From the IMG/VR virus record IMGVR_UViG_3300050154_000050, positions 1 through 47,816 of that record: 47,816 nt of DNA; one strand, 5' to 3'. Shown here one piece after another: positions 7,961 through 46,334 of the stretch. Positions within the stretch are counted from its first letter, which is position 1, and every line of letters begins with the position of its first letter. A program made the position numbers and the translations under genes. The notes beneath the pieces are model-generated. The model searched no databases, was not told where the DNA came from, and saw only the letters and a list, made by a program, of their open reading frames with translations. This DNA comes from a virus.

Positions 7961-7974
7961 ATTTAACTATTACA
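7961..7974 (-). promoter_or_regulatory. 14-bp motif TGTAATAGTTAAAT (perfect copy), pointing into 7244..7945
   Basis: Plus strand ATTTAACTATTACA; 15 nt (aacGGAGttaatgaa) separate the motif from the ATG. Confidence 0.6.
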
Positions 7975-7999
7975 AATACTAGCACAACATGCGCTGCAA

Positions 8000-8410
8000 T
8001 CAAGGTTTATATCGCTGTTTTATGAAATTAATGGCAGCCTCCCATCCTAGCGCAACACATACATGAGAGCCTAGTTTGTGACACTGCATAAGGTATTCTT
8101 GCTGGCCTGTTTGCCAATGGCTTTTCGTGTGGTCAATGCGCTTTAGTTCTATAACGATTGCAGGCGTACAAGGGATAACCACATCGCTTGCACCTGTGTT
8201 TAATGCGCCTCGCAGCTTGTCTTGCTTTGCCTTGTAAAAGTCTTTACCCGTTCGCTTTGCTTCGTTTTTAGGATGCACGGCAATGCTGTGCAATTCAGGA
8301 AACTGAATACGCAATTGGTTAAAAAATGTGACATGCTCAACATCTTCGAGCGGGCATTCACCTCGATAATTTACGTCACCTGCAACATGTAGCCATGATG
8401 GGAATTTCAT
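8000..8410 (-). CDS. VRR-NUC domain nuclease
   Basis: 136 aa; PD-(D/E)XK-type signature GASDVVIP...IVIELKR; 4-nt overlap with the helicase gene. Confidence 0.75.
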   Translation of the reverse strand: MKFPSWLHVAGDVNYRGECPLEDVEHVTFFNQLRIQFPELHSIAVHPKNEAKRTGKDFYKAKQDKLRGALNTGASDVVIPCTPAIVIELKRIDHTKSHWQTGQQEYLMQCHKLGSHVCVALGWEAAINFIKQRYKP

Positions 8411-10242
8411 TCTATTACTCCAAAATCTAAACCAACAACATCAAAGTATTTACTGTTTTTTTGCTTCTTAAACATAATCTTTTCTGGTTGTTTTGCTGTG
8501 AATCTCCGATGGTAAGCATCGGTTACGCCAACTAGTATTTCACCAAAAGTGGATAAACAAAACTTGTTCCACTTGCTCAATAGCCAAGCTGAATCACTTT
8601 CTGGATGATACCACTCCATAAGTGTTGATGGTTTATCGGCAATCATGTATTCAACGCGTAATGATTCAGGCTTGCCATCTTTACCGGGCCATCGTGTAAA
8701 ATTCCACATCTGAACATCTGCAAAGCGTACGCGGTATGGGTCTTTTTCCATCTTGAGTGCTTCTTCAATCAGGCGATCGTTAGGGTTTACAAGCTCTCCA
8801 CGGCACTTTGTGCAATATCTCGCTGCAATATCATTCTCATGTCCGCAATCTTCACACACCTTGAATGACCATTTGTGTGAGCATTGCGTGAATCGTCCGC
8901 CGATAATGTGAAAGCCTTGGCATCGTCTACCGTAGTGAGCTGGTAAAAATTTTCCTTCTTCTGCTTCAATGCGTGAGCCTGCTAAATCTACAAAATAACC
9001 TTCTGAGTCAATGTCAAAACCATCAGGATTAAATCGCGCAGCAAACTCGTTATGATTTCCGCAAGTAGGGCAAATAACCGTCATCGGTGAAGATTCACCT
9101 TTGCGTGTTGCTCTGATTTCAGGATTGAATACATCACCATCTGGGCAGTGGCGTTCGATGTTTCCCGCGTAGTCTGAAACTAAGCACTCATTTTTCCCGG
9201 CCTCTACACGCAACCCACGGCCTATTATTTGTTGCAGCAATCGCACAGACTCAGTAGCTCTCATAATAACAACATGGTCAACGTGCGGAGCGTCAAAACC
9301 AATAGTTAGGACAGTCACGTTAACTATATATTTCAATGACTTAGACTTGAATTTATTTATTGCATCTTCACGGTCTTGTTTTGACATGTCACCTGTAACC
9401 ATAACTGACAGTTCAGGAGGTAGTGACTCCATTATCTCTCTAGCATGTTGTCTAGTTGCTGCAAATATCATCACGCCTTGCTTGCTTGCTGAGTTAGTAA
9501 CAACATCAGCGATAATACGCGCCGTCTTTCTTCCTTGGCCAACAAATGCCTTGTCGATTTCTTTATCGTCAAATTTACCGTTACGTCCAATCTTTAATGA
9601 TGCTGTATCGTAGTTCTCAACGGATGGTTGAAAAACTGGCTGAGACAAAAAACCTTCTGCAATCAACATTCTCGCATCAATTGTGTAAATCAACTCCATG
9701 TAATACGGGTCAATCGCCGTTTCTTCTGTTAACGCGCCTTGAATGTAGTGGTGTTGGTAGATGTATCCGCTGCCTAGACGAAATGGTGTCGCAGTCAGAC
9801 CAATAACACGCAATAGTGGATTCTCTACCTTCATGTGCTCGATTATTTTTTTAAGTGTTGGCGTAATGCCGTCCGCCTCATCAACAATAACTGCCGCATA
9901 CTGACCACCAAACTTTGACAAATTATTAACAACTGTAAGTGGTGAGCCAAAAACAACAGCGCTTTTTGTTTCTTTTCTTCCGGCGCTTGCAGAAAACATT
10001 GACGCCGGTTCACCAGTTAATAAATATTTTTCTCTGTTCTGTTGTACCAATTCCTTAGACGGAGCCAAACACAGTATTTTTTTACCGCTCATCTTGTTAA
10101 TTGTATTAGCAAGCATGGCGACGATGATTGATTTACCTGCCCCTGTTGGGGCTTCAATAATGCACGAATCAGAACATTTTTTTATCCATGATATGCAGGC
10201 GTCATGCGCTTCCTGCTGATACCATCTTGGTGATATTTTCAT
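8407..10242 (-). CDS. Superfamily-2 DEAD/DEAH-box DNA helicase with C-terminal zinc ribbons
   Basis: Walker A APTGAGKS, VIVDEAD box, TATP motif III, several CxxC pairs near the C-terminus. Confidence 0.85.
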   Translation of the reverse strand: MKISPRWYQQEAHDACISWIKKCSDSCIIEAPTGAGKSIIVAMLANTINKMSGKKILCLAPSKELVQQNREKYLLTGEPASMFSASAGRKETKSAVVFGSPLTVVNNLSKFGGQYAAVIVDEADGITPTLKKIIEHMKVENPLLRVIGLTATPFRLGSGYIYQHHYIQGALTEETAIDPYYMELIYTIDARMLIAEGFLSQPVFQPSVENYDTASLKIGRNGKFDDKEIDKAFVGQGRKTARIIADVVTNSASKQGVMIFAATRQHAREIMESLPPELSVMVTGDMSKQDREDAINKFKSKSLKYIVNVTVLTIGFDAPHVDHVVIMRATESVRLLQQIIGRGLRVEAGKNECLVSDYAGNIERHCPDGDVFNPEIRATRKGESSPMTVICPTCGNHNEFAARFNPDGFDIDSEGYFVDLAGSRIEAEEGKFLPAHYGRRCQGFHIIGGRFTQCSHKWSFKVCEDCGHENDIAARYCTKCRGELVNPNDRLIEEALKMEKDPYRVRFADVQMWNFTRWPGKDGKPESLRVEYMIADKPSTLMEWYHPESDSAWLLSKWNKFCLSTFGEILVGVTDAYHRRFTAKQPEKIMFKKQKNSKYFDVVGLDFGVIE

Positions 10243-10247
10243 GGTGT

Positions 10248-11066
10248 TTATTCCACTTCCAACATATCAATCGTGGCGTTAAATTTAGCCATCAGCTTAA
10301 TAAATGGATCATCCATCGTCATTTTATTGGCCCACACTTTCTTGAACTCAGCAGACGTTAAAACGGGTTTTTCTTTGTTTGTCATGCGCAGCGTTTTGTT
10401 ATTTGATGAGTAAAATCCATCATACTCAATAACCATGTTTTCTTGGTCTACTGACTCGATAGAATAACCAGTGTTAGTGATAAAACACGGATGAAAGATG
10501 TGCAGATCTTCATTTGTGCAACGCTGGCAAATTGGCGAGCCTTTAGCGGCACAGCTTTCACAATTTATCGCCGGAAGATTATTGCCAATGCACAAATCGT
10601 AATGATCGCAGTAAGCGCAATATTCACCGTCTGTACGCTCTGGTGGCTCATCCATATCCGACAGTGAAGAATAATCATCAAGTGCTAAATAAGCAGCGTT
10701 AGCGTCATACTCAACGACAAGTTTTTTAGTTAGCGTAAATACCAAAGATTTATGCAGTACATTGCCTTGTTTAGACAGTTGTCCTGACAAGTTCATTTTC
10801 GCGCTTATGTGTCCTAATGAAAATTCTTGCTCAGGAAATACAGCAAGCAACATAAACTCGTCATTGTGTTTAACAATGCCATCAATAGCGTAAAATCCAT
10901 TCAGTGAAGCTCCTTCGTGAGCAATCTTGTAATGCTCTTTAATGCGAGACATCATGAAGTTTTTTACATGTGCTGATAATGCGCTTATCTGTTCAAGGCG
11001 TTTTGAATCGTTCAATTTGCGCTCTGTGTAATATCGTGAGCGCATACAAATATCATCAGTTTGCAT
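10248..11066 (-). CDS. Cas4-like PD-(D/E)XK exonuclease with Fe-S cluster cysteines (putative)
   Basis: C7 plus C-x2-C-x5-C (CAYCDHYDLC) matches the Cas4/AddB cluster pattern; sits in the recombination module; extra Cys-rich C-terminal region. Confidence 0.5.
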   Translation of the reverse strand: MQTDDICMRSRYYTERKLNDSKRLEQISALSAHVKNFMMSRIKEHYKIAHEGASLNGFYAIDGIVKHNDEFMLLAVFPEQEFSLGHISAKMNLSGQLSKQGNVLHKSLVFTLTKKLVVEYDANAAYLALDDYSSLSDMDEPPERTDGEYCAYCDHYDLCIGNNLPAINCESCAAKGSPICQRCTNEDLHIFHPCFITNTGYSIESVDQENMVIEYDGFYSSNNKTLRMTNKEKPVLTSAEFKKVWANKMTMDDPFIKLMAKFNATIDMLEVE

Positions 11067-11091
11067 ATTACATCCTATCGGTGAATAGGTT

Positions 11092-12915: not shown

Positions 12916-12949
12916 CTTGTTACTCCGTTGTTTCGCTTCGATGTGGTAA

Positions 12950-12978
12950 ATACTAAATCAACATATTTTGTGTGTCAA
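12950..12978 (-). promoter_or_regulatory. Candidate PL (sigma70-type): TTGACA-17-TAGTAT
   Basis: Minus strand TTGACA (12978..12973), 17-nt spacer, TAGTAT (12955..12950); upstream of 12915. Confidence 0.5.
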
Positions 12979-12987
12979 CACTTGTTG
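12976..12987. promoter_or_regulatory. Inverted repeat CAACA-ct-TGTTG between the PL and PR -35 boxes (operator candidate)
   Basis: 5-bp arms read directly; the repeat overlaps both -35 elements. Confidence 0.3.
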
Positions 12988-13010
12988 TGTATTATTTTTT
13001 AGCATAGAAT
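12982..13010 (+). promoter_or_regulatory. Candidate PR (sigma70-type): TTGTTG-17-TAGAAT
   Basis: Hexamers at 12982-12987 and 13005-13010 with a 17-nt spacer; 30 nt upstream of the Cro-like gene. Confidence 0.5.
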
Positions 13011-13039
13011 TGCTTCATTGAATACATAAAGGAAGAGAT

Positions 13040-15586: not shown

Positions 15587-15679
15587 ACTAGTATTATTAG
15601 TTATCTGGTGTTGTGCACCATAGCGCTCTTTTTTACACAGTTTTTTGCTTTATTAAATTATTAAGTTTATAGGTTTTAG

Positions 15680-15712
15680 AAACCCCCGAATCGAAAGAAA
15701 CGGGGGTTTTGC
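15680..15712 (+). terminator. Intrinsic terminator after the primase-helicase gene
   Basis: AAACCCCCG-12 nt loop-CGGGGGTTT followed by T. Confidence 0.7.
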
Positions 15713-15868
15713 GTATCTGGGCCTCTATATAATATATAAAGTTAATATTTTAATATTGTTATATAGGGAAGTTTAATCAAGCTTTAACGCCGAACTCGCC
15801 ATACGATAACATTGTTTTTACCACATTGGAATAGCTTAAAAAACTTTATTTTTATGGATTGTTTAACT

Positions 15869-15882
15869 TGTAATAGTTAAAT
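15869..15882 (+). promoter_or_regulatory. 14-bp motif TGTAATAGTTAAAT (perfect copy), pointing into the 15953-19150 small-gene block
   Basis: Read directly. In this copy only, the motif lies within TTTAACT-tgtaat-AGTTAAA (7-bp inverted arms). Confidence 0.6.
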
Positions 15883-15952
15883 TATTGGCGTAGATTTAAT
15901 GGCAGGTGAGGCGCAATGGTGCGATGAATAGTTAGATTAGCGGAGATTGGAA

Positions 15953-16135
15953 ATGACTAGCGAAGAAATGGATGAGTTGTTGTTTAGTTTAGCGTGGTGC
16001 TCATGGAGTGCATACCATAACCAAAACGCAAAATTCTTACTTAAAAAACACTTTCCAGAGATTGATGCAGAAAAGCAAATAAAGCGGTTTGAAAATATCA
16101 TCACTCAAAAACCACAAGAAGGATCACCAAAATGA
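15953..16135 (+). CDS. Hypothetical protein
   Basis: Track ORF 15947..16135 trimmed to ATG 15953, which has GGAG 8 nt upstream. Confidence 0.5.
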   Translation: MTSEEMDELLFSLAWCSWSAYHNQNAKFLLKKHFPEIDAEKQIKRFENIITQKPQEGSPK

Positions 16136-16260
16136 CCTACGAAAACATCATAATCGGCGATTTACTGGATACCTACATGTACGCATGTCGCCCTGACAAC
16201 TTTGAAGGCATCATCTGTGATGCTGACAGCCAAGCAGTAGTCGTTGTTTTCAATAGTTAA
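16132..16260 (+). CDS. Hypothetical 42-aa protein (below the track cutoff)
   Basis: ATGA start/stop overlap with the upstream gene; MTYENIIIGDLLDTYMYACRPDNFEGIICDADSQAVVVVFNS. Confidence 0.4.
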   Translation: MTYENIIIGDLLDTYMYACRPDNFEGIICDADSQAVVVVFNS

Positions 16261-16343
16261 CAGTAATGCAAGCAAACGCACTACCAGCGTGAAGAAATTA
16301 AAACTAAACCGATTCAGCAAGCGTTAAAAATAGGAGTAACACC

Positions 16344-16673
16344 ATGAACTATGCAGAGATGAGTGATTTTGAGATTAATAAGGCTGTTTTCTTAAAATTA
16401 AATATTGACTATGAGGATTTTGATTTAAATCCGTTTCCAGATGATTGCGCATCATTAAGCTATGGAGATGGTGCAAACTGGCATGAATTCGATGCTTGCA
16501 ACAATCCGTCAGACGCTTGGCCGATTATTGCTGAAAACAAAATAAACGTTTATGCGTCAGAGGGCCCAGATTTCATGCCTTGGATGGCTGGATGCAACCA
16601 CTTCATGGTTAGCCATAAAAACCCACTACGCGCAGCAATGATTGTTTTCTTGATGATGAATGAGGATAAATAA
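16344..16673 (+). CDS. NinX-like (DUF2591-like) protein
   Basis: MSDFEINKAVFLKL...NNPSDAWPIIAENKINV resembles the NinX family; GGAG before the ATG. Confidence 0.55.
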   Translation: MNYAEMSDFEINKAVFLKLNIDYEDFDLNPFPDDCASLSYGDGANWHEFDACNNPSDAWPIIAENKINVYASEGPDFMPWMAGCNHFMVSHKNPLRAAMIVFLMMNEDK

Positions 16674-16676
16674 CAA

Positions 16677-17012
16677 GTGGATATCACGAAAGTAATAAAC
16701 AAATACGAAGCGCATTCATTTCACAACTGCCTTAATTTCTACAAAGAACCAGAGGGTGAATGGAGTAAATGCCCAAAATGCGAATTAAAGCCTAAAGTTT
16801 GGCTGTTTGATAATGGGAGATTTACTGCTTGTGGGTGCTGGAATAGTGAATATGACCATTTTAGCGTTAGAGCTGAAAGCATTATGAGTGTATATAAACG
16901 CACAGATGGAAAGAAAATTAATGAGTACGATTCTGATGGATTGAGAAAAAACTGGAATCATTATTGCGAAACGGGCGATATTTTGTTTTCAGCTGAAAAT
17001 GGCTTGTGGTAA
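16677..17012 (+). CDS. Hypothetical Cys-rich protein (GTG start)
   Basis: 111 aa; CPKC ... CGC cysteines suggest zinc binding. Confidence 0.5.
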   Translation: MDITKVINKYEAHSFHNCLNFYKEPEGEWSKCPKCELKPKVWLFDNGRFTACGCWNSEYDHFSVRAESIMSVYKRTDGKKINEYDSDGLRKNWNHYCETGDILFSAENGLW

Positions 17013-17032
17013 TAAAATAGAGGAGTAACACC

Positions 17033-17296
17033 ATGTGCAACACAAACCTAACACGTGAACAACTCGTAAGCATCCTAAGTGATGCGCAGCAATTGGTGCA
17101 GAATGCCCGGTCGGCATTAACACTAGATGTGGCGTATAAAGGAACGAAAGAACCGGCTCTGTTTGGATTTTATGAGGATGAGTGCAAAGCGGTGCATAAG
17201 CGCGTTGATGCGATACTGGAGGCGGCTGGTGTTGAGTTGGTTGGTGATGATGTGGAAGTTTTTCACCGAGTTGAAAAATGCCAGGATAGTTTTTAG
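17033..17296 (+). CDS. Hypothetical protein
   Basis: 87-aa track ORF behind AGAGGAGTAACACC-ATG. Confidence 0.5.
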   Translation: MCNTNLTREQLVSILSDAQQLVQNARSALTLDVAYKGTKEPALFGFYEDECKAVHKRVDAILEAAGVELVGDDVEVFHRVEKCQDSF

Positions 17297-17485
17297 ATGA
17301 TAGCCCCATCACAAAAGCACCGCTTTATCACGAAAAAAGAGGCGGTATACTGGCTTAATGCCAACAACTTCAAGCAAGTTCGCGGAATGAAAGGTTATTA
17401 TTTAAACGATAAATACTCAGCAAATTTGCAACATATGCCAAGCGGTGCGTGGGTTGTGATTGTTGTAATTAGTGATAGAGGGTGA
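17297..17485 (+). CDS. Hypothetical protein
   Basis: 62-aa track ORF abutting the previous stop. Confidence 0.45.
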   Translation: MIAPSQKHRFITKKEAVYWLNANNFKQVRGMKGYYLNDKYSANLQHMPSGAWVVIVVISDRG

Positions 17486-17488
17486 GAT

Positions 17489-17833
17489 ATGAGAGAGATT
17501 AAGTTTAGGTGTTGGAATGCGCACTCAAAGGTGATGCACGATTGGGGCGAGTTGGTTGGTAAAAATAAAATTCATTTATTAGCTAACCAAAAAACATCAT
17601 ATCCTGTTATGCAATTCACAGGGATGCTAGATAAACATGGAATGCCTATATTTGAAGGTGACATCATTCACTGGCATGGGTTCAACCTTGAGGTTAAATT
17701 TATTGTAGATGGCTGGTTTGCTGAAACAGCGGACGAGTCAATAACGGAAGCGGGACAAGAATGGGAATCATCTTGCGCCGTAATCGGAAACATCCACCAA
17801 CACGCACACTTATTGGAGCAAAACAAATGCTAA
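17489..17833 (+). CDS. YopX family protein
   Basis: MREIKFRCWN...MQFTGMLDKHGMPIFEGDII...GNIHQH matches the YopX signature. Confidence 0.7.
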   Translation: MREIKFRCWNAHSKVMHDWGELVGKNKIHLLANQKTSYPVMQFTGMLDKHGMPIFEGDIIHWHGFNLEVKFIVDGWFAETADESITEAGQEWESSCAVIGNIHQHAHLLEQNKC

Positions 17834-18171
17834 AACTAAAACAATCCTGTGGTGAGAAAATTGTGCTTAAAGATGCGCAAACTGGACATCATTTGATGAC
17901 GATTACCACTATGCTGGCAGATGATGAAATGCTAGCAATTTACCGCTCACCGTTAATTTGTCGCGTTGAATATCCGGCTGGAAAAGATGGATTTATTCCT
18001 ACTACCTACATGCCTATTCCTCATGCAGACTGGTTTGATTTTGGAAAAACATCATTCCGCATCACGAACAGAAAGCGAGCGACAGTAACATATCGCTTTA
18101 TGCAGGAAGAAGATGAAGTGCAAGTGCTACGGGCTGATTTGATCCAGCGTAAGGATTATTGCTATGAATAA
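17827..18171 (+). CDS. Hypothetical protein
   Basis: Track ORF 17761..18171 trimmed to ATG 17827, which overlaps the YopX stop. Confidence 0.5.
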   Translation: MLKLKQSCGEKIVLKDAQTGHHLMTITTMLADDEMLAIYRSPLICRVEYPAGKDGFIPTTYMPIPHADWFDFGKTSFRITNRKRATVTYRFMQEEDEVQVLRADLIQRKDYCYE

Positions 18172-18373: not shown

Positions 18374-18383
18374 GGAATAAAAA

Positions 18384-18572: not shown

Positions 18573-18581
18573 GGAGTAACC

Positions 18582-21810: not shown

Positions 21811-21977
21811 GCATTTCTCCAAACTTCCCAGTCGTGTTCGAGATAGCACTTTGCCTTACCTTGGTATGTTGCGTAGTGAACTGAGTCACTACGATGCTTT
21901 GACAGTTCAATATTGAATAATTTATGTTTTGCTGCAAACCATAGCTCGAATTTGTCGCGTTCTGAATACATAATCAA
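21795..21977 (-). CDS. Hypothetical protein (cassette A)
   Basis: 60-aa track ORF; 4-nt overlap with the upstream gene. Confidence 0.5.
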   Translation of the reverse strand: MIMYSERDKFELWFAAKHKLFNIELSKHRSDSVHYATYQGKAKCYLEHDWEVWRNAKAAI

Positions 21978-22252
21978 TCCCCCACAAACTCACCAGATTC
22001 TTTACCTGCATACGGACTGACATCGCCAGTGTGGCGCTTGGCTTTGTTTTCTTCCCATAGCTTCGTGTAAAAATCGTTATCGCGCTTTTCTCGCTGACTA
22101 CGCTCAAGCAATACCGCTGCTTTGCGTTGTCGGCAAGCTTCTTGGTATTTGTCTGTGAACAGTTCGCCTGATTTTATGGAAGCAATGACATCTTGTTTTG
22201 ACGGCATATTAATTACCCATCCTTGGCATTTTACCTGACGGAGTGCGCTCAC
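21974..22252 (-). CDS. Hypothetical protein (cassette A; likely start ATG 22207)
   Basis: Track ORF; the internal ATG follows TAAT after the upstream stop. Confidence 0.5.
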   Translation of the reverse strand: MSALRQVKCQGWVINMPSKQDVIASIKSGELFTDKYQEACRQRKAAVLLERSQREKRDNDFYTKLWEENKAKRHTGDVSPYAGKESGEFVGD

Positions 22253-22355
22253 ATTTCATGCACCACTCGTTCCAATACGCTTGCCCTACGCGGAAATATT
22301 CTGCTTCCTTTATTTCACGGCAGCGCATACATTGTTTCATACCTTTTTTAATCAT
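22209..22355 (-). CDS. 48-aa zinc-ribbon-like protein (cassette A; below the track cutoff)
   Basis: MIKKGMKQCMRCREIKEAEYFRVGQAYWNEWCMKCERTPSGKMPRMGN with CxxC...CxxC; TGATG coupling to the upstream ORF. Confidence 0.45.
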   Translation of the reverse strand: MIKKGMKQCMRCREIKEAEYFRVGQAYWNEWCMKCERTPSGKMPRMGN

Positions 22356-22528
22356 CACTTAACCTCCTGAATAATAACCCTGTCGCCTTGTGAGTTTTTC
22401 ATGATTGTGACGTTGTGGCATTGTAGTGCCACATCATAATTATTCAGCCCGTTTAATTTATCTCTGAACGTGCTAATTCCGAAGCCGTATTCAATGCCAT
22501 AACGATTAATGAATGTTCGCTTGTACAT
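22355..22528 (-). CDS. Hypothetical 57-aa protein (cassette A; below the track cutoff)
   Basis: ATG 22528 two nt after the upstream stop; MYKRTFINRYGIEYGFGISTFRDKLNG... Confidence 0.45.
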   Translation of the reverse strand: MYKRTFINRYGIEYGFGISTFRDKLNGLNNYDVALQCHNVTIMKNSQGDRVIIQEVK

Positions 22529-22530
22529 AA

Positions 22531-22815
22531 CTATTTAACTCCACATTCAGATTCAACAATCTTAATCAACCGATGGATATAAGCCAACGGCAACGCCTGC
22601 GACATTGCACCTACTAGAATCTTTCTAGTTCGCTCACCTTGAAAGCGTTTAAGCATGTGACCACAAGCTTTGCGCACTGCTGTGTTAGGCTTATCAGCGT
22701 TAAGTTCAGCAGCCATCAGGCAGGTTAGCAGCATGGATCGGAATTCCTCCGATTCTATGCGCTTCATTTCTGGTGTATCAGAGGCGTAGGTGATTGGTAG
22801 TGCAAGATTTACCAT
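22531..22815 (-). CDS. Hypothetical protein (first gene of cassette A)
   Basis: 94-aa track ORF; GGAGATACAAC-ATG; 15 nt downstream of a motif copy. Confidence 0.55.
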   Translation of the reverse strand: MVNLALPITYASDTPEMKRIESEEFRSMLLTCLMAAELNADKPNTAVRKACGHMLKRFQGERTRKILVGAMSQALPLAYIHRLIKIVESECGVK

Positions 22816-22830: not shown

Positions 22831-22844
22831 ATTTAACTATTACA
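22831..22844 (-). promoter_or_regulatory. 14-bp motif TGTAATAGTTAAAT (perfect copy), pointing into cassette A
   Basis: Plus strand ATTTAACTATTACA; 15 nt (agatGGAGatacaac) to the ATG. Confidence 0.6.
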
Positions 22845-22915
22845 TACATAGTATAGCCACTATTCACACCATGCAAGCCATATCACCACTAAAATGCTAA
22901 AATAAATCATTCCAC

Positions 22916-24346: not shown

Positions 24347-24364
24347 AGCCCCAAGGATGGGGCT
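24347..24364. terminator. Shared hairpin between the portal gene and antisense cassette B (weak U-tract)
   Basis: AGCCCC-aaggat-GGGGCT. Confidence 0.45.
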
Positions 24365-24593
24365 AGTCTGCGATGAAGTATTGCGCTTTTTGTGATACTA
24401 GAAAATCGCGAGCAAATTCAATAGGCATTCTCGCTTTGTATTCGCAGTCATAGTCGGGGTTGTTTTTACTTATCACGTAAATAACTGTCGGTTCCATTCT
24501 GTTTATTTCATAAACGACAGAGTTTATGCTTTCATTTTTTTGATAAACCGCCACAAACTGCCCGCAAGTTGGCATTCCTGAGACTTGTTTCAT
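24363..24593 (-). CDS. Hypothetical protein (cassette B)
   Basis: 76-aa track ORF; 4-nt overlap with the upstream gene. Confidence 0.5.
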   Translation of the reverse strand: MKQVSGMPTCGQFVAVYQKNESINSVVYEINRMEPTVIYVISKNNPDYDCEYKARMPIEFARDFLVSQKAQYFIAD

Positions 24594-24916
24594 TCTTCCA
24601 CCTTATATCCTGCTGATGTGATTGCTTCCTTGCATTCATTATAGGATTCTGAATACCCGGTATCGTAATCTCCATCTACAATTACCAACTTATGAGGTAA
24701 CTTAATCGCCTTCATGCTTTCGCGTGATGCTTTCCATCCCATCCATGCGGAATCAACCCAAGACATTTTGTAATATCCAGACGCATTTTGAAGCAGAACT
24801 TTGTTTTTACAATGATAATTAATTTCATCGCAGTAGCTAACCAACCACGCCTCAAACTCCTCTCTACATTTGTCCATTTTTAATAACCTCGCAATCAACA
24901 ATAATAAAACCATCAT
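24590..24916 (-). CDS. Hypothetical protein (cassette B; likely start ATG 24877)
   Basis: Track ORF; MDKCREEFEAWLV... begins behind GAGG. Confidence 0.5.
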   Translation of the reverse strand: MMVLLLLIARLLKMDKCREEFEAWLVSYCDEINYHCKNKVLLQNASGYYKMSWVDSAWMGWKASRESMKAIKLPHKLVIVDGDYDTGYSESYNECKEAITSAGYKVEE

Positions 24917-25271
24917 ACTTAACTTCTTTTAGCGTGTGGTTTTTAATAAACATTGGTACACCAGCTGTCACGGATGGGTCTCCGTGACCAGCCGCCGATG
25001 TCTTGTCTGCCATGATGCAAATGTGCCATTCATCATTAATCTTGCATATGAAGTTACCGGTCAAATTAACCTTCTTGTCGTTTTTATCGCGCCACTCACC
25101 AGACGGCCACCAAGTGCTATGCCACTTAATTAGCATTTTTAACTCCTTCTTCATAACCTTTGCACCAACTTGTAACAACTTGTAACAACTACCGCCGTTA
25201 AAGCCATCATAACGGCGCAGTAAACCAGATAATATGTAATTGCTGTTGCTATCATTTGCGCATCCTATCAT
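24864..25271 (-). CDS. Hypothetical protein (cassette B; probable true start ATG 25136)
   Basis: AAGGAG lies 6 nt before ATG 25136; the 45 N-terminal codons of the track ORF span a 10-bp tandem repeat and look non-coding. Confidence 0.5.
   Translation of the reverse strand: MIGCANDSNSNYILSGLLRRYDGFNGGSCYKLLQVGAKVMKKELKMLIKWHSTWWPSGEWRDKNDKKVNLTGNFICKINDEWHICIMADKTSAAGHGDPSVTAGVPMFIKNHTLKEVKYDGFIIVDCEVIKNGQM
25166..25190. repeat. Tandem 10-bp repeat TGTAACAACT x2.4 carrying TTGTaACAA palindromes one helical turn apart
   Basis: 25171-25180 equals 25181-25190, with a partial unit at 25166-25170. Confidence 0.8.
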
Positions 25272-25280: not shown

Positions 25281-25294
25281 ATTTAACTATTACA
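25281..25294 (-). promoter_or_regulatory. 14-bp motif TGTAATAGTTAAAT (perfect copy), pointing into cassette B
   Basis: Plus strand ATTTAACTATTACA. Confidence 0.6.
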
Positions 25295-26308: not shown

Positions 26309-27019
26309 TTATTCGGACATAATTCTGTTTTTTGCTATCTCGAAATACTTATCGTCCATCTCGATACCGATGAATTTGCGGTTTAGGTTTTTTGCTGCTA
26401 CACCTGTTGTGCCTGAGCCAATAAATGGATCAAATATCACAGATTCAATAACTGAATGGTTAATAATGAATTTTTCCATTAAATCTACAGGCTTGCATGT
26501 TGGATGCCCATACTCATTTTTATCTTTCTTGTTTATAGGTGACGTAAAAACCATACTTTTTGATTCATAACTACCTAATATCTTTGATTTTTTACCTTTT
26601 ATGTAAATCCAATACTCAACATCGTTTAGATATTTACAATTACATAGTGGAGTTGGATTTGTTTTGTTCCACACACCAATACCGTATTGATATCCGTTAT
26701 CCTCAGCAAATGAGATATACATGTGCAATTGCTTTGTAGAGCAAGTAAACACGCAGCAAAAATGTTGTTTAGTTTTAAACAGGCGTTTTGATTGTTCAAT
26801 AAATTTATTGAAGTTAAAACCATTAACCATATCCATCGAGTTAACTTCTTGCATAAACTCTCTGTTATCGCGGCCCATCATTCCTCCGCCTTTGCTCTTT
26901 GATAACTCATATGGCGGGTCAGTCAAAATCATATCAACAGTACCACTTTCAATTTCTTTCATTCTTTCTAAGCAGTCGCCTTTCATTAGCCACATTGTTT
27001 CTGTTTTAATATCGCTCAT
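26309..27019 (-). CDS. DNA methyltransferase (beta-class N6-adenine/N4-cytosine)
   Basis: Motif IV ILTDPPY precedes motif I FDPFIGSGTTGVAA; visibly AT-rich gene. Confidence 0.8.
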   Translation of the reverse strand: MSDIKTETMWLMKGDCLERMKEIESGTVDMILTDPPYELSKSKGGGMMGRDNREFMQEVNSMDMVNGFNFNKFIEQSKRLFKTKQHFCCVFTCSTKQLHMYISFAEDNGYQYGIGVWNKTNPTPLCNCKYLNDVEYWIYIKGKKSKILGSYESKSMVFTSPINKKDKNEYGHPTCKPVDLMEKFIINHSVIESVIFDPFIGSGTTGVAAKNLNRKFIGIEMDDKYFEIAKNRIMSE

Positions 27020-27705
27020 TTCTTTTCTATCCTCGCAAACGTAACTGTTTCTGCATACTTTGTGACGCGATCTTTGGCTAATATGTAAATCTCCTTATAT
27101 GGAAACTTTCGCTCCATCCCTTCTTTAATGGCCGCTCTGCACACTTGTTCTGCTGCTTGCAGAAAGCACAAGTCAAGAAGGTCAAGCGTGTCACGGAATC
27201 CGCTAGGAACTTTCTCTTTGCTTTGTATCAACTCAAGCGCTGCATACTCCATTTTTGTGATGTTCATATAGTATTTTGACGCACTGCCTGAACCTTGGTC
27301 TGTGGCGTAGTCTACAAAATCTTTAATGGTGTCAGTTACATTGCGCCTGACTTCTTTGCTTTGAATGCGCGCTTGTTTCCATTCCAGTTTGTCATCATCT
27401 TTCTTTAATTGAGCCTCCATTGCGCTAAAAGCATTAATGTACGCCTCTTTCCATTTTGCAGCCTCTGAGCCAGTGAATCCCATACACAAGAAAGAGAATC
27501 CATCTCGTGTCATCATGAAGCTGTCGTATGTATGCCCCCTCACGACATAATTTGACTGCGCAAAATGGCGCATCATAAACTCATCGCTGCACTCAAGATT
27601 ATCTATTGCCCTCATAACATCACGATGAATCTTTCCGAATTTTTTTGATACTAGTACGCTATCAACCATCGGAACGCCATTAGTTAAAACAACCAAATCA
27701 TTCAT
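27016..27705 (-). CDS. Rha family phage regulatory protein
   Basis: N-terminal VDSVLVSKKFGKIHRDVMRAIDNL...FLCMGFTG matches the Rha signature. Confidence 0.75.
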   Translation of the reverse strand: MNDLVVLTNGVPMVDSVLVSKKFGKIHRDVMRAIDNLECSDEFMMRHFAQSNYVVRGHTYDSFMMTRDGFSFLCMGFTGSEAAKWKEAYINAFSAMEAQLKKDDDKLEWKQARIQSKEVRRNVTDTIKDFVDYATDQGSGSASKYYMNITKMEYAALELIQSKEKVPSGFRDTLDLLDLCFLQAAEQVCRAAIKEGMERKFPYKEIYILAKDRVTKYAETVTFARIEKK

Positions 27706-27716
27706 GTTAATTCCTT

Positions 27717-27731
27717 ATGTAAAATTTACAT
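27717..27731. promoter_or_regulatory. Perfect 15-bp palindrome ATGTAAA-a-TTTACAT upstream of rha (operator candidate)
   Basis: 7-bp arms read directly; 11 nt upstream of ATG 27705. Confidence 0.5.
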
Positions 27732-27884
27732 GATAATTGTAGTTTATATTGGCCAAGAAAACAACGAAACATAAAAGCGTTTAAACACTCTTCAACAAGC
27801 AATTTTCACCGTCACGATAAACAAAACCAATTCACGTTTGAAACGTAAGACGGCCGACATTTCGGCGCTCCTAAATTCAACACA

Positions 27885-27908
27885 CAAAAAAGGCGCACTA
27901 AGCGCCTT
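27885..27908 (-). terminator. Intrinsic terminator after dut (leftward)
   Basis: Minus strand AAGGCGC-ttagt-GCGCCTT followed by TTTTT. Confidence 0.7.
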
Positions 27909-27933
27909 ACCATTATGCTAATACCGGCGGCAT

Positions 27934-28362
27934 CTATCTTCCACTACTCCCAAATCCACCATCACCACGCTCGCTGTCGCTTAATTCCGTTACCTCTTCA
28001 AATGTAACTACCGGCACAGGAATAAGCATGGCTTGTGCGATGCGGTCGCCGACTTTAGGCACGTATTGAATCTGGCGGTCACAGGTTAGCTTTACCATTA
28101 GCTGGCCGCGATAGCCTGAGTCGATAACACCTACGCAATTAGACAGGCGCATATTGTTTTTGAAGCCATGACCAGAGCGGCTATAAATCATCATGGCGTA
28201 ACCTCGTGGTACTTCTACTGACAAGCCAGTATCGCATAGATACATTCCACCAAAATTATCGTTGACGCCATCAGCATACAAATCAAAACACGCATCACCG
28301 TCATGTGCGTAGGTTGGCAGCTTTGCTGTATCCGTGAGGAGCTTTACTTTTAGATTAATCAT
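27934..28362 (-). CDS. dut: dUTP diphosphatase (trimeric dUTPase)
   Basis: Motifs GDACFDL, SRSG, GVIDSGYRG and C-terminal RGDGGFGSSG. Confidence 0.9.
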   Translation of the reverse strand: MINLKVKLLTDTAKLPTYAHDGDACFDLYADGVNDNFGGMYLCDTGLSVEVPRGYAMMIYSRSGHGFKNNMRLSNCVGVIDSGYRGQLMVKLTCDRQIQYVPKVGDRIAQAMLIPVPVVTFEEVTELSDSERGDGGFGSSGR

Positions 28363-28820
28363 TTGCTTAAAAACTCCTTTATGTCATCAACTGAAATGCT
28401 GAACTCTATAACGTAAGAATTAATTCCGACTTCAAGGTTATTATCGTTATCTTCATATTTAACGGGTATGTAGTATTTCTTTGATTCTTTTTTGTAATTC
28501 GGGTCGTAAATGCTCCAATTACCATCTGGATCAACCTCCATCAGCACCATGTGAGTGCCGCCTTCGACGTTCAAGCTTGGCACTATCAAGCCATAAACGG
28601 TGTTGTAGTCAATGTTTTTTGGTGAAAAATCAGCGTACATCCTTTCTACTATCAGGCCCTTACTATGCAGGTATTCGGCGCATGTTATGTTGCATTCGGT
28701 GTAGTATTTTTCGTGAAACTCATTAATCACCTCCTCAACCGGCACACATAATATCATGGACATGCAGGTGCTTACGCAAGTTATTGGCGTTGGTTGTACT
28801 TGTTGTTTTATTAGCATCAT
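28359..28820 (-). CDS. Stand-alone papain-like cysteine peptidase, C39-like
   Basis: Q-x5-C (QPTPITCVSTCMSMIL), GGTHMVLMEV and WSIYDPNY give a Q/C/H/D arrangement as in C39 peptidase domains. Confidence 0.55.
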   Translation of the reverse strand: MMLIKQQVQPTPITCVSTCMSMILCVPVEEVINEFHEKYYTECNITCAEYLHSKGLIVERMYADFSPKNIDYNTVYGLIVPSLNVEGGTHMVLMEVDPDGNWSIYDPNYKKESKKYYIPVKYEDNDNNLEVGINSYVIEFSISVDDIKEFLSK

Positions 28821-29422
28821 TCCCCGCCTTTTGTTGGTACTGATAATTCACCAGATAGAATTGAGTCGTAAACACTGCGCAAATGCGATTTCAGTCTTTG
28901 CTTCTCACCTTCAGATGTTCCTCCAAAAATACATGTATTACCATATGCGCTATCAACCCACTCGTTACGCAAACGCTCTGCCTTTTCTTCTGGTGTTTCT
29001 AGTGGGCGAATTGATTCAATTACAAGCTGAGTTGTATAACGTGTTCGTCTGTTGTAAACGGCAACACACATACCACCATTACCACCACACACATGAGCTA
29101 GAACATCAAGAATATCTCCACTTTCGAACTCCTCTATTGGCTCGTAGTAATTAAATTCATTATTGAAAACAAACTCAACATTAGCCCCCACCTCTGGCAA
29201 CCGCCCAGCCTTTTGGTCTTCAACCGTCCAGCGTTTAGGTTCTTGGATGATGCGGCGCATGGCGCAAACTGGGTGATTTCTCAATGACTCAGGAGTTAAA
29301 TCAGATGATCTTGCGTAAGACTTAATCCCACTAGCAATACTATGAACAACAACATCTAAACCGGTAAAAGTTCCAGCTCCATCGAACAATTCTTGGTTAC
29401 CAAACACTGCTTCATATTTCAT
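28817..29422 (-). CDS. Hypothetical protein (cassette C)
   Basis: 201-aa track ORF; 4-nt overlap with the peptidase gene. Confidence 0.55.
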   Translation of the reverse strand: MKYEAVFGNQELFDGAGTFTGLDVVVHSIASGIKSYARSSDLTPESLRNHPVCAMRRIIQEPKRWTVEDQKAGRLPEVGANVEFVFNNEFNYYEPIEEFESGDILDVLAHVCGGNGGMCVAVYNRRTRYTTQLVIESIRPLETPEEKAERLRNEWVDSAYGNTCIFGGTSEGEKQRLKSHLRSVYDSILSGELSVPTKGGE

Positions 29423-29648
29423 TATTTATCTCCTAAATTATCAACATCACTACGAACGAAAATTACATCGCGGTTGTCTTTGCGTTCATGGCGCCCGCAT
29501 GGCGGAACATTTCTGTAATCACTGCCAATTGTACACATCCCATACGCGCTACTTAAATCACAATTCCTGCATCCATCCTGCATCCATCCTGCTCAACAGC
29601 GATATACCACAAGCCATCATGCTTGAACTTGCTCTCTGTGTAGTTCAT
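29422..29648 (-). pseudogene. Small 4-Cys (zinc-ribbon-like) gene frameshifted by an 11-bp tandem duplication
   Basis: The ORF from ATG 29648 stops after 31 codons. Removing one 11-nt unit restores a 71-codon ORF ending in TAATG on the next gene start (227-11=216 nt). Confidence 0.5.
29565..29591. repeat. Tandem duplication CATCCATCCTG x2 plus a partial third unit
   Basis: 29570-29580 equals 29581-29591; 29565-29569 repeats the unit end. Confidence 0.9.
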
Positions 29649-29650
29649 AT

Positions 29651-29824
29651 CTACTCCCACTCATCCGGCGACATAATGCGGTTTGGGTTGATTACTTCAA
29701 AGTGTGATTCATCTAGTGTTCTATGAACACCTAATACACACCAGTCTTTGCAGCAATCATCGAAAAATGCCACCTCCCAATCTCCGCCATATTTCACCCA
29801 ATAAAACCCACTTTTACGCTCCAT
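29651..29824 (-). CDS. Hypothetical 57-aa protein (cassette C; below the track cutoff)
   Basis: MERKSGFYWVKYGGDWEVAFFDDCCKDWCVLGVHRTLDESHFEVINPNRIMSPDEWE; GGAG before the ATG. Confidence 0.45.
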   Translation of the reverse strand: MERKSGFYWVKYGGDWEVAFFDDCCKDWCVLGVHRTLDESHFEVINPNRIMSPDEWE

Positions 29825-29839
29825 CTTTAATCTCCTTAA

Positions 29840-30046
29840 TCAGAAAAATAACCCCATAAAAGAGCCAACAGGAACAGCAATAATGCCTACAGCTCTAACA
29901 ACAAGTAATCCCGTTATGTTGCCAAAATCGCTATTAACAACATTTATGCAGTTTATAATCCATCCGTAAATGCAGATTAACCACATCATAATTACAAAGA
30001 TTGCCAGTTTTACCGGCGTTCCTGAACTTCGTTTTTTACTTAACAT
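29840..30046 (-). CDS. Small membrane protein (2 TM helices)
   Basis: LAIFVIMMWLICIYGWII and LLVVRAVGIIAVPVGSFMGLFF. Confidence 0.5.
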   Translation of the reverse strand: MLSKKRSSGTPVKLAIFVIMMWLICIYGWIINCINVVNSDFGNITGLLVVRAVGIIAVPVGSFMGLFF

Positions 30047-30233
30047 CTTTAATCTCCTTAACTGCTAATTTACGTTGTGCGCGTTTTGCGCGGTGATATG
30101 CCACTGCACACGAACCTTTCTTGCAAAACTTGCGAGGGTTGCTATTTGGTAAGTAACTAAACTCCTCACCACACCAATCGCATGGCTTTGTCATAATCTG
30201 TGAATCTGGAATGTGAACCATTTTGCATCTCAA
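30036..30233 (-). CDS. Small Cys-rich basic protein (likely start ATG 30221); first gene of cassette C
   Basis: CDWC...CKKGSC plus a basic tail HRAKRAQRK; the track start is TTG. Confidence 0.5.
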   Translation of the reverse strand: MRCKMVHIPDSQIMTKPCDWCGEEFSYLPNSNPRKFCKKGSCAVAYHRAKRAQRKLAVKEIKDVK

Positions 30234-30257: not shown

Positions 30258-30271
30258 AGTTAACTATTACA
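30258..30271 (-). promoter_or_regulatory. 14-bp motif variant TGTAATAGTTAACT (1 mismatch), pointing into cassette C
   Basis: Plus strand AGTTAACTATTACA. Confidence 0.55.
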
Positions 30272-31428: not shown

Positions 31429-31647
31429 ATGTTCATTCAACTCACACAAGAACAGATGCGACAAGATAGCGGGGATGGCCTTCTACGCTGCGCCTGCACG
31501 ATTGCAAGCAGTTACGGCATAGAGAACTTCATTGAATACACGGAACCGCGCACAGTGCTTGTGGCTGGCGTTAAATGTCATGCTGTTTTTGATTACGTTC
31601 GGCGCGGCGTTGAGTTTGTGGCTTGCAAAGATGAGAAAGTGGTGTAA
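31429..31647 (+). CDS. Hypothetical protein
   Basis: Track ORF 31390..31647 trimmed to ATG 31429, because 31390 lies inside the predicted -10. Confidence 0.45.
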   Translation: MFIQLTQEQMRQDSGDGLLRCACTIASSYGIENFIEYTEPRTVLVAGVKCHAVFDYVRRGVEFVACKDEKVV

Positions 31648-31656
31648 TAATTAAAT
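31643..31656 (+). promoter_or_regulatory. 14-bp motif variant TGTAATAATTAAAT (1 mismatch), pointing toward the tRNAs and head genes
   Basis: Read directly; overlaps the stop codon of 31429..31647. Confidence 0.5.
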
Positions 31657-41126: not shown

Positions 41127-41129
41127 CAT

Positions 41130-41147
41130 AAGCCCCGAAAGGGGCTT
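41130..41147. terminator. Shared bidirectional hairpin between the major tail gene and antisense cassette D
   Basis: AAGCCCC-gaaa-GGGGCTT. Confidence 0.7.
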
Positions 41148-41289
41148 AGTTTAATTTAAAGTTTTCAAGCTCAGATAAGTCAATGTCATTTTGTTCTACA
41201 GCATCAAAATGATAAACATCAATACCTTCATTACATTCAGATTTAATAACCGCTAAATCTTCTTCATATCCCAAGAATGTTAATTCCAT
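41146..41289 (-). CDS. 47-aa highly acidic protein (cassette D; below the track cutoff)
   Basis: GGAGATACAAA-ATG; MELTFLGYEEDLAVIKSECNEGIDVYHFDAVEQNDIDLSELENFKLN has 13 D/E against 2 K and 0 R. Confidence 0.55.
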   Translation of the reverse strand: MELTFLGYEEDLAVIKSECNEGIDVYHFDAVEQNDIDLSELENFKLN

Positions 41290-41320: not shown

Positions 41321-41334
41321 ATTTAACTATTATA
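41321..41334 (-). promoter_or_regulatory. 14-bp motif variant TATAATAGTTAAAT (1 mismatch), pointing into cassette D
   Basis: Plus strand ATTTAACTATTATA; 31 nt to ATG 41289. Confidence 0.55.
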
Positions 41335-41372
41335 CACCCTCAAACCAACCGCAAGCCATAAACACAAAAAAA

Positions 41373-45495: not shown

Positions 45496-45500
45496 AAGAA

Positions 45501-45518
45501 AAGCCCCGGTAGGGGCTT
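45501..45518. terminator. Shared bidirectional hairpin between the tail gene and antisense cassette E
   Basis: AAGCCCC-ggta-GGGGCTT. Confidence 0.7.
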
Positions 45519-45526
45519 AGTTGTTA

Positions 45527-46297
45527 CTATTGCTTTAGTTTATCAAATAAATTTTTAAGTTTAGAAAAACTATCAATCATTCCGTCTATCTGCTTTTCCA
45601 TTTCAATTATTTCAACGTTAATTTCACGCTGAATATTCATAATCTCATGTTTTGACAGTTGTTTTTCTTCTTCTTTTTTTGCTTCTTCTGCCGCCGCTAG
45701 AAGTTTGTTTGCTTGTTCAATTAGCTCTTCTGATTTGGTCTTTGTATTTGATTTATCTGTCATTATAATATTCTCACTTAAGCTTATTAGTATAGTTCCA
45801 GTTCTTCCGTTTTTTATCTTTCTTACTTTTATTAGCCCATCATTCTCTAAGCTATCTAATATGTTTTTTCTGTCAATTTTGCACATCTTTTTAAATCTAT
45901 GCGCGCGAGCCGTTAACTCGCTCATATTCATTTCATTTTTTTCTTTCAGCACAAAAAGCAACTCATCAAGTAGTGATTTTACTTCTACTTCCGATACGAG
46001 CTCATAACGACTTTCAATTCGCTTAACATCATTTACATTAGCGGCGTAAAATGATATTTGATTCCCACTTGACTTGCTTCTTAGTTTAAGTTTTATTGCC
46101 CCTCTTTTTTTGCACAATACATACAAACTCTCATGTCTTGCTTGACTAGAGAGAAGTACGTATTCCCTTATGCTGAAAAAGTTTGCGATACTCATTGGCT
46201 TGCCATGTAGCAATTTTTTTACAATTATATCTGCAACCTTTAGTATTCTTGCGTATTCTTGGTCTGAATAAGACCTTCCATCGTATCCAACTTTCAT
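45527..46297 (-). CDS. AT-rich wHTH plus coiled-coil protein of unknown function (cassette E)
   Basis: 256 aa; central MSELTARAHRFKKMCKIDRKNILDSLENDGLIKVRK looks winged-helix-like; K/E-rich coiled-coil C-terminus; AAGGAG before the ATG. Confidence 0.55.
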   Translation of the reverse strand: MKVGYDGRSYSDQEYARILKVADIIVKKLLHGKPMSIANFFSIREYVLLSSQARHESLYVLCKKRGAIKLKLRSKSSGNQISFYAANVNDVKRIESRYELVSEVEVKSLLDELLFVLKEKNEMNMSELTARAHRFKKMCKIDRKNILDSLENDGLIKVRKIKNGRTGTILISLSENIIMTDKSNTKTKSEELIEQANKLLAAAEEAKKEEEKQLSKHEIMNIQREINVEIIEMEKQIDGMIDSFSKLKNLFDKLKQ

Positions 46298-46320
46298 TTT
46301 TTAACTCCTTCATTAACTGT

Positions 46321-46334
46321 ATTTAACTATTACA
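46321..46334 (-). promoter_or_regulatory. 14-bp motif TGTAATAGTTAAAT (perfect copy), pointing into cassette E
   Basis: Plus strand ATTTAACTATTACA; 23 nt to ATG 46297. Confidence 0.6.

Follow-up and report, generated by a model that had tools for sequence, protein, structure and literature searches.

Promoters of the '-35/TGn' class carry the dinucleotide TG one base before the -10 hexamer, and region 3 of sigma70 reads this TGn, which can offset a weak -35 or a weak -10 (PMC2613000). The hexamer itself may be non-canonical, with A at -12, as in gapA P1 (AATTTT), ompF (AAAGAT) and lambda P_RE (TGT-AAGTAT), and the -35 is optional in this class, which was established for sigma70 of E. coli (PMC2613000). 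Here we describe a 14-nucleotide (nt) element, TGTAATAGTTAAAT, which is repeated through the genome of an uncultured siphovirus, IMG/VR record IMGVR_UViG_3300050154_000050, and compare it with promoters of this class and with other dispersed elements of phages. The whole stretch of 47,816 nt was analyzed and is called the window below.

When host sigma70 reads the promoters of a phage, these can show far less variation than the host's own. The early promoters of T4 and the extended -10 middle and late promoters of the Thermus phage P23-45 each follow a lineage-wide consensus used by the host polymerase, and different box types can set temporal classes without a sigma factor of the phage. Asymmetric intergenic repeats of 13-14 nt, oriented with transcription, also serve other ends: the stoperators of cluster A mycobacteriophages (the gp71 sites of L5) and the start-associated sequences of cluster K are tied to a repressor or to translation in temperate phages. 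They lie among genes that are transcribed together, where stoperators block elongation, or keep a constant spacing to the start codon. In T4-like phages, the promoter-early stem-loop (PeSL) elements combine sigma70 promoters with stem-loops, flank variable ORFans and are associated with modular shuffling (PMC2839356, PMC4122927), for which recombination between copies, giving mini-circles, is the proposed mechanism.

Anatomy and constraint of the box

A search of the window for TGTAATAGTTAAAT with up to two mismatches returned exactly eight copies, five perfect and three with one mismatch (Table 1), where 100 dinucleotide-preserving shuffles searched at the same tolerance gave a mean of 0.88, a maximum of 4 and never eight. 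An initial annotation, made from the letters alone, had listed these copies as exceeding chance and as a candidate promoter or operator class; their positions and their excess are confirmed, as is its statement that five of them head antisense cassettes in the structural region, and the analysis supports a promoter element rather than a chance repeat. It had also held that every copy is intergenic and points into the next gene block. The orientation stands for all eight, but the first 5 nt of the copy at 31643 overlap the end of the open reading frame (ORF) 31390-31647. The motif is not palindromic, has no inverted-repeat structure and contains no Shine-Dalgarno sequence, and it is separated from the start codon by anything from 15 to more than 60 nt (15-65 nt).

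The motif has the layout of an extended -10 element, with TG at positions 1-2, one further base, and a hexamer at positions 4-9, AATAGT (AATAAT at 31643), that keeps A-11 and T-7. In this register T1-G2 would be the TG at -15/-14, T3 the unread 'n' at -13, A4-T9 the -10 hexamer from -12 to -7, and T10-T14 (TAAAT) an AT-rich discriminator, with a start predicted 1-3 nt past the motif; such a start would account for the short leaders with GGAG that are seen. Upstream, TTGTTG, TTGCAA and TTGCGG lie 14 nt from the motif at 25281, 31643 and 41321, which gives a 17-nt spacer, and TTTACA lies 15 nt from it at 46321, which gives an 18-nt spacer. A scan for sigma70 promoters reports two of these, TTGCAA-17-AATAAT (31623-31651) and TTTACA-18-AATAGT (46355-46326), both with TG before the second hexamer. 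With the -10 at positions 4-9, the earlier claim that no -35-like hexamer is conserved thus fails for four of the eight copies, and the objection that a G falls where sigma70 needs A-11 is true only of the wrong register, in which TGTAAT is taken as the hexamer. About half of the copies would accordingly use a TTGNNN -35 at 17-18 nt, and in the remainder the TG element would substitute for it.

Among 21 non-redundant sites, TTG stands exactly at the 17-nt spacer in nine, against a background of 3.3% per offset (P=1e-8; 4e-7 when corrected for 37 offsets). An enlarged set of 131 sites, collapsed into 45 families from three related phage clades, has TTG at this spacer in 14 families (P=1.3e-10; 5e-9 corrected), eight of which read TTGAC[ACGT], and five further families have TTG at a 15-nt spacer. 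The two bases past the box are A or T in 43/45 and 42/45 families, and the base 7 nt past the hexamer, at the position predicted for a sigma70 start, is most often A (22/45).

Conservation outlines the same element. In seven orthologous junction families comprising 41 distinct sequences, minority bases make up 4/574 within the motif and 112/1845 in the 45 nt upstream (Fisher p=1.8e-9), and divergence climbs to about 30% from 13 nt downstream of the motif. T-7 (motif position 9) is invariant in 53/53 copies, A-11 (position 5) differs in one alone, a probable chance match in a relative (L009 2931+), and the TG is kept in 51; the variable positions are G2, A7, G8, A13 and T14. The TAAAT at the end of the motif is also fixed within the clade of the window. 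Given the invariance of T-7, the near-invariance of A-11 and the sites at which variants occur, the constraint matches what sigma70 reads.

We therefore consider it probable that a family of sigma70-type extended -10 promoters, with the 14-mer as its core, is reused in front of exchangeable accessory cassettes. The copies would be paralogues of one portable promoter, each driving a self-contained accessory unit and read by the sigma70 holoenzyme of the host RNA polymerase; so read, the feature would be a lineage-specific promoter belonging to known kinds. It shares with galP1, lambda P_RE, gapA P1, T4 Pminor and ompF (PMC2613000) the TG at -15/-14 one base before the hexamer, a non-canonical -10 with A-12, A-11 and T-7, and a TTGACA-like -35 at 17 nt in some sites only; lambda P_RE has TGT-AAGTAT where the box has TGT-AATAGT. 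Cellular TGn promoters are individually diverse, whereas here one version of 9 to 14 nt recurs nearly unchanged over sites and clades. An orphan class without a reader can in this way be given a concrete anatomy (-35, 17-nt spacer, TGn, AATAGT and a predicted start about 7 nt on), with which the transcription units of this uncultured lineage (genomes of about 48 kb) become annotatable from sequence alone, as do those of the cultured Aeromonas phages related to it.

Table 1. Motif copies and other promoter-like features of the window. L numbers are our handles for loci of related phages; aa, amino acids; wHTH, winged helix-turn-helix.
Feature	Position	Strand	Elements	Unit headed and its far end	Relatives
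Copy 1, perfect	7961..7974	-	AATAGT 7966-7971; TG 7973-7974; no -35 at 17 nt; GGAG 3 nt and ATG 15 nt past motif	gene 7244-7945 and leftward block reaching wHTH gene 5616-6083	kept in L012, L013, L015, L043, L046
Copy 2, perfect	15869..15882	+	AATAGT 15872-15877; weak -35 (TTTTTA); AT-rich upstream region	small-gene block 15947-19150; terminator 19170-19187	kept in L008, L010, L012, L015
Copy 3, perfect	22831..22844	-	AATAGT 22836-22841; ATG 15 nt downstream	antisense cassette 22815..21974 between terminase and portal genes; bidirectional hairpin 21790-21807	found in ten relatives
Copy 4, perfect	25281..25294	-	AATAGT 25286-25291; -35 TTGTTG 25309-25314, 17-nt spacer	antisense cassette 25271..24363; terminator 24347-24364	cargo past motif swapped or interrupted by insertion
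Copy 5, TGTAATAGTTAACT, one mismatch (...AACT)	30258..30271	-	AATAGT 30263-30268; ATGCAA at 17-nt spacing	long antisense block 30233..26309 (zinc-ribbon protein, dUTPase, Rha-like regulator, methylase); hairpin 26287-26306	
Copy 6, TGTAATAATTAAAT, one mismatch	31643..31656	+	AATAAT 31646-31651; -35 TTGCAA 31623-31628, 17-nt spacer	tRNA-Met, tRNA-Gly, head genes	same variant in L008 and L010
Copy 7, TATAATAGTTAAAT, one mismatch (TAT...)	41321..41334	-	AATAGT 41326-41331; -35 TTGCGG 41349-41354, 17-nt spacer	single-gene cassette, acidic 47-aa ORF 41146-41289; bidirectional hairpin 41129-41148	TGTAATAGTTAAAT without mismatch; 14 nt upstream, TTGATG or TTGCGG
Copy 8, perfect	46321..46334	-	AATAGT 46326-46331; -35 TTTACA 46350-46355, 18-nt spacer	cassette gene 45527-46297; bidirectional hairpin 45501-45518	cargo varies among L039-L045
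TGnTAnAAT example, TGCTAAAAT	22895..22903	+		before portal gene	
Other intergenic TGnTAnAAT copies	1720, 5566(-), 19940, 25316, 35170, 37924, 38823, 38882, 40616, 41373				
Divergent early control region, without motif	12916..13039	.	canonical -35/-10 pairs		
TTGACA-17-TAGTAT	12978-12950	-		toward replication genes	
TTGTTG-17-TAGAAT	within 12916..13039	+		toward Cro/YdaS-like gene and primase	

The box in relatives and at cassette boundaries

The first 127 nt of the window (1-127) are identical to its last 127 (47690-47816), which indicates a circularly assembled genome of about 47.7 kb; a J-like tail gene is cut in two by the arbitrary start point of the assembly. Family searches of the ORFs identify a siphovirus with terminase, portal, head, tape-measure and J-like tail genes, together with a primase, a helicase, an SSB, an exonuclease, a lysis cassette and two tRNAs, and with a Cro/YdaS-like helix-turn-helix protein, a wHTH protein and a Rha-family regulator. 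A Megablast comparison of the full window with 50,697 phage records returned no close relative, the sole match being a methylase gene at 72-75% identity, and no prophage relatives, which were sought for host assignment, were found in 185,579 reference genomes. Relatives at graded distances were IMG/VR contigs found by portal, helicase and tail-protein searches. An exact scan of IMG/VR for the 14-mer was dropped as uninformative: nearly all of the matches listed were single chance copies, and among them contigs with at least two copies came only from the clade already found. The nearest cultured phages are the Aeromonas phages phiA005 and 4_L372X, whose portal is about 50% identical and which have the same unusual arrangement of antisense small-gene cassettes among terminase, portal and head genes. 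What they have in common with the window comes down to the virion module, the endolysin, proteins of the NinX-like and DUF7740 types and a handful of proteins of 57-69 aa; the replication modules are not shared, and no DNA-binding protein recognisable in the window has a homologue in either phage.

Absence of the motif from the equivalent junctions of close relatives, which the initial annotation had named as evidence against its own proposal, is not what is found: relatives with 83-96% portal identity retain the 14-mer there and carry additional copies. The 9-mer core, TGTAATAGT, occurs seven times in phiA005 and eight times in 4_L372X (shuffle means of 0.48 and 0.37), with five bases past the core that differ from the TAAAT of the window. 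A further 19 contigs of similar depth, many of them mutually related, hold 48 exact copies of the core in 156 kb, where a random 9-mer would give about one. One contig, 3300020045_001314 (loci L014 and L185), has TGCAATAGT at five sites and TGTAATAGT at one, and the sole difference between clades in the core TG[T/C]AATAGT is the 'n' of TGn, a position unread by sigma70. Relatives that share only the helicase, at 31-52% identity, do not have the box above chance level, and therefore, by these comparisons, the box tracks the lineage of the virion module and not that of the replication module. The best-ranked full-text literature matches to TGTAATAGT are not about phage promoters, and the published description of phage 4_L372X says nothing of promoters or motifs.

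To locate the ends of conserved sequence around the box, 400 nt on each side of every motif copy in close relatives were compared with the window by BLAST. On the backbone side the alignment reaches the edge of the motif in nearly all relatives, and on the cargo side it is often missing or restarts only past 250-310 nt, a gap that indicates an inserted gene. At the 22831 junction, relatives retain the leader and the Shine-Dalgarno sequence and have the gene replaced from the start codon on. One relative (L049) has a chimeric junction in which the upstream flank of the 41321 copy is fused to the leader of the 46321 copy, and another (L006) has motif, gene and motif in tandem. The additional copies at L002 9518, L008 16061 and L010 14195 lie 11 nt past a terminator hairpin. 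The motif thus acts as the seam between conserved backbone and exchanged cargo, and would probably be the crossover point for cassette exchange. Uniformity within a genome, such as the prevalence of the TGC variant in one of them, fits copying or conversion among promoter copies.

In phiA005 (L050), the slot orthologous to the 46321 cassette of the window is 'empty': positions 36694-36825 hold TTGACA-N14-TGTAATAGT and, about 100 nt further on, a terminator hairpin, and no ORF is annotated there. This slot may specify a small RNA, or it could be what is left of a cassette since lost. A tRNA abutting a motif copy in L002 and L008 (GGCCTTATAGCTCAG...) was considered and rejected, ARAGORN and Rfam both being negative.

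A close functional parallel is the PeSL of T4-like phages, which likewise consists of dispersed sigma70-like promoters beside small variable ORFans, with the indels and replacements of relatives mapping to them. A PeSL, however, joins the promoter to an adjacent stem-loop terminator, whereas most copies here, and all of the divergent ones, have none and the terminator stands at the far end of the cassette; further, PeSLs are found in T4-like myoviruses, and the present boxes in siphoviruses of about 48 kb, with cassettes antisense within the virion-gene array and a -10 fixed as the non-consensus AATAGT. In its behaviour the box resembles a PeSL, yet it falls outside that family, because the defining composite stem-loop is mostly missing. 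Promoter-marked cassette exchange, so far described in T4-like myoviruses, thus probably operates in siphoviruses too, on antisense accessory genes among virion genes, and the box can be used to find fast-evolving cargo, in which genes for host takeover or anti-defence may be included.

Candidate readers and competing explanations

Scans of essentially all ORFs of at least 50 aa against PHROG, Pfam and NCBIfam detected neither a sigma or anti-sigma factor nor an RNA polymerase, which bears out the initial annotation on this point, and no homologue of a sigma-region-4 modifier (for example AsiA or gp39) was identified. Promoters of T7-like or N4-like polymerases or of gp55/gp28-type sigma factors do not fit either, there being no such gene and the spacing of the -35 and the register being of host type. 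The need for an unfamiliar reader, implied by the initial annotation, is not supported, since TG-n-AATAGT reads as a standard sigma70 extended -10 or '-35/TGn' promoter. The host sigma70 holoenzyme would be the most economical reader, because a dedicated reader encoded by the phage would need to be shared with the Aeromonas phages, and the recognisable DNA-binding proteins are not shared. Sites for LexA, TyrR, CRP, IHF and Ogr (TGT-N12-ACA) were also considered, and none matches all copies.

The only large orphan ORF, of 697 aa (35782-37875, + strand), lies between two terminators inside the virion-gene array and has no match in PHROG, Pfam, PDB sequences or the 50,697 phage genomes. It was rejected as a cryptic polymerase, as inspection of its sequence by eye shows no polymerase-type catalytic motif; rich in G, N, S and T, it looks like a beta-helix fibre protein or depolymerase.

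A number of observations weigh against the extended -10 promoter reading. Four of the eight window copies lack a correctly spaced -35. The copies at 7961 and 22831 each have an upstream -35/-10-like pair of their own, relative to which the motif may fall at about +1 to +14; the former is preceded by TTGATT-16-TAGTAT (about 7976-8003) and a small weak hairpin (7981-7995), the latter by TTGCAT (22871-22876)-15-TATACT (22850-22855). At 30258, a conserved TTGCAA 3 nt upstream of the motif permits the alternative TTGCAA-17-TACACT, which would put the motif inside the spacer. The start sites and the dependence on sigma70 are themselves predictions from the DNA, and the non-consensus A-12 and G-8, fixed in three clades, are not explained by a plain sigma70 reading. 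The seam, moreover, could be partly trivial, since the last constrained base before hypervariable cargo always resembles a breakpoint. An operator overlapping the start site may be present, although nothing directly indicates one.

The genome also carries a second type of box, TGNTANAAT (TGnTAnAAT), in 19 copies, of which 17 are on the + strand. Its intergenic copies immediately precede the tail-fibre, lysis, terminase, portal, head-morphogenesis, connector, tail and tape-measure units, and phiA005 has TG[GA]TA[ACT]AAT in the same places. The initial annotation had set the 14-mer apart from such boxes, and this distinction is borne out: the 14-mer heads the five antisense cassettes, the 15947-19150 block, the 7945-to-5616 block and, as the AATAAT variant, the tRNA/head unit, and the TGnTAnAAT boxes stand before virion genes. 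Virion and lysis genes would use TGnTAnAAT, with a near-consensus -10 and usually no -35. Each of the five antisense cassettes ends at a bidirectional hairpin common with the preceding + strand gene (21790, 24347, 26287, 41129 and 45501). Between the 31643 promoter and tRNA-Met lie about 350 untranslated nt (31657-32010), which match no Rfam family; phiA005 has a gap of about 460 nt before its tRNAs.

At two junctions the motif promoter lies very close to a divergent + strand promoter. The copy at 25281 stands back-to-back with the + strand box TGATATAAT (25316-25324), and at both 25281-25324 and 46321-46364 the -10 hexamers of the motif promoter and of the divergent + strand promoter are 27 bp apart. 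Two polymerases probably cannot be bound there simultaneously, and expression of the cassette and of the virion genes could therefore be mutually exclusive at these sites. The idea that the motif is an upstream element of the divergent + strand promoter was ruled out, because the inner distances vary (27, 27, 40, 44 and 56 bp).

Orthologous TGnTAnAAT boxes vary at -13 and -10, and AATAGT never drifts. Because boxes of the first type vary freely in the same genomes and those of the second do not, either an added factor, or selection for strength or for dependence on the -35, may be at work. The explanation that survives best beside the plain promoter reading is accordingly that the box is a sigma70 promoter plus a dedicated regulator, of the phage or the host (an activator, a repressor or a sigma70 modifier), which distinguishes AATAGT-type from TAnAAT-type promoters and times the accessory cassettes differently from the virion and lysis genes. 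T-15, G-14 and the six bases of the hexamer are invariant over three clades at about 50% protein identity, the split between accessory genes behind the motif and virion and lysis genes behind TGnTAnAAT is clean, and the fixed TAAAT within the clade of the window points in the same direction. A candidate for such a regulator is encoded at 30036-30233 (- strand). This basic zinc-ribbon protein of about 61 aa, with the pattern C-x2-C-x16-C-x5-C followed by a basic C-terminal helix and a pI of 9.7, could be a small transcription factor. Its gene is the first past the 30258 copy, and the protein is among the very few non-structural ones common to the window and both Aeromonas phages (homologues at L050 19783-19950, in phiA005, and L051 4647-4799). 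However, it has no assignable family, structure or function, and its detectable homologues are confined to this one lineage, so that their co-occurrence with the box amounts to a single observation. The gene is itself behind a motif promoter, and host polymerase must therefore read the box first; the motif is not palindromic, and the uniformity may stem from the copying or recombination among copies suggested by the TGC variant. We regard a dedicated regulator as doubtful on balance. Equally tentative is the wider proposal that TG-n-AATAGT defines a separate regulon, set apart by a small factor (the zinc-ribbon protein or a sigma70 modifier) that switches the host polymerase between two kinds of extended -10 promoter, no phage sigma factor being required, with the box serving also as a landing pad for cassettes that move among genome positions and from phage to phage. 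In its uniform promoters the lineage resembles T4 and P23-45, and its two box types would be candidates for temporal classes; the fixity of AATAGT and the split between two boxes would offer a simple system for the study of gene timing in a phage without its own sigma factor.

Far less probable is a reading of the box by an alternative sigma factor of the sigma70 family in the host, such as the stationary-phase RpoS. Promoters preferred by RpoS tend to carry a TG at -15/-14, a C at -13 and the bases T-A-A from -6 to -4, and the clade of the window does have TAA at -6 to -4, one clade has C at -13, and 22850-22856 reads CTATACT. Most copies have T and not C at -13, though, and the discriminators of the Aeromonas clade are not TAA; RpoS and RpoD share the -35/-10 architecture and cannot be told apart by sequence, and a lytic programme dependent on a stress sigma factor would be unusual.

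It is similarly improbable that the motif is no promoter at all and lies downstream of the true starts, as a stoperator-type operator or as an element of the 5'-leader RNA acting in processing or translation. Being asymmetric, 14 nt long, present in many copies and always co-oriented, it does resemble the stoperators of mycobacteriophage L5; the upstream pairs at 7961 and 22831 would suit such a position, and AATAGTTAA stands 5 nt past a TATAAT on the + strand at 46370. Yet a -35 falls exactly at 17 nt in a third of independent sites, and most copies have no better promoter upstream. Each copy begins a unit rather than separating genes transcribed together, and five copies occupy divergent junctions, at which transcription has to start; and no integrase, recombinase or CI-type repressor was found in family scans of the window. 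The variable distance to the start codon and the lack of a Shine-Dalgarno sequence likewise separate the motif, with its -35/-10 anatomy, from stoperators and from leader elements. Least likely of all is that the motif is primarily a site for site-specific recombination, like integron attC/attI, serving cassette capture: cargo does change at or just past it, as in the chimera, the tandem and the empty slot described above, but no integrase or recombinase was found in the window, the motif has no inverted repeat, only one end of each cassette has a copy, and many breakpoints lie past a shared leader or Shine-Dalgarno sequence and not at a fixed base.

Other control regions of the genome

The early control region (Table 1) lacks the motif. 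In the leftward block headed by the 7961 copy, the wHTH gene (5616-6083) is followed within 5403-6083 (- strand) by a TGTTATAAT box (5566-5574) and an ORF of about 36 codons or an RNA; past this unit stand a strong terminator (5442-5421) and the lysis genes 5402..3487 (a small ORF, endolysin, holin and spanins). The layout is like that of lambdoid late control (Q, P_R' and t_R'), and by this analogy the lysis operon could be controlled by antitermination. Upstream of the 15869 copy, the long intergenic region past the primase (15587-15868) contains a hairpin resembling a terminator, AAACCCCCG...CGGGGGTTT, and beyond it a tract that is AT-rich and in part palindromic, TATATAATATATAAAGTTAATATTTTAATATTGTTATATAG; it could be a replication origin.

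Rigid dispersed boxes were also looked for in the helicase-only relatives L014, L023 and L028 and rejected, as the repeated words proved to be local iteron clusters of origin-like or operator-like character. These clusters, at L014 3677-3892 (GATTATTGAATTAT, six copies), L023 5045-5211 (AGTAGAATAGTAG, three copies) and L028 4965-5212 (AAGAGATAG, four copies), are probably replication origins or operator arrays. A dispersed word of another kind, ACTGGTCAAACCAC, stands exactly 18 nt upstream of TATAAT, TATATT or TATAGT at L028 2899(-), 12389(+) and 14193(+) and also in L026 and L034, phages that share only the helicase, at about 47% identity; it is unlike a -35 and is placed like an activator box, comparable to the MotA box of T4.

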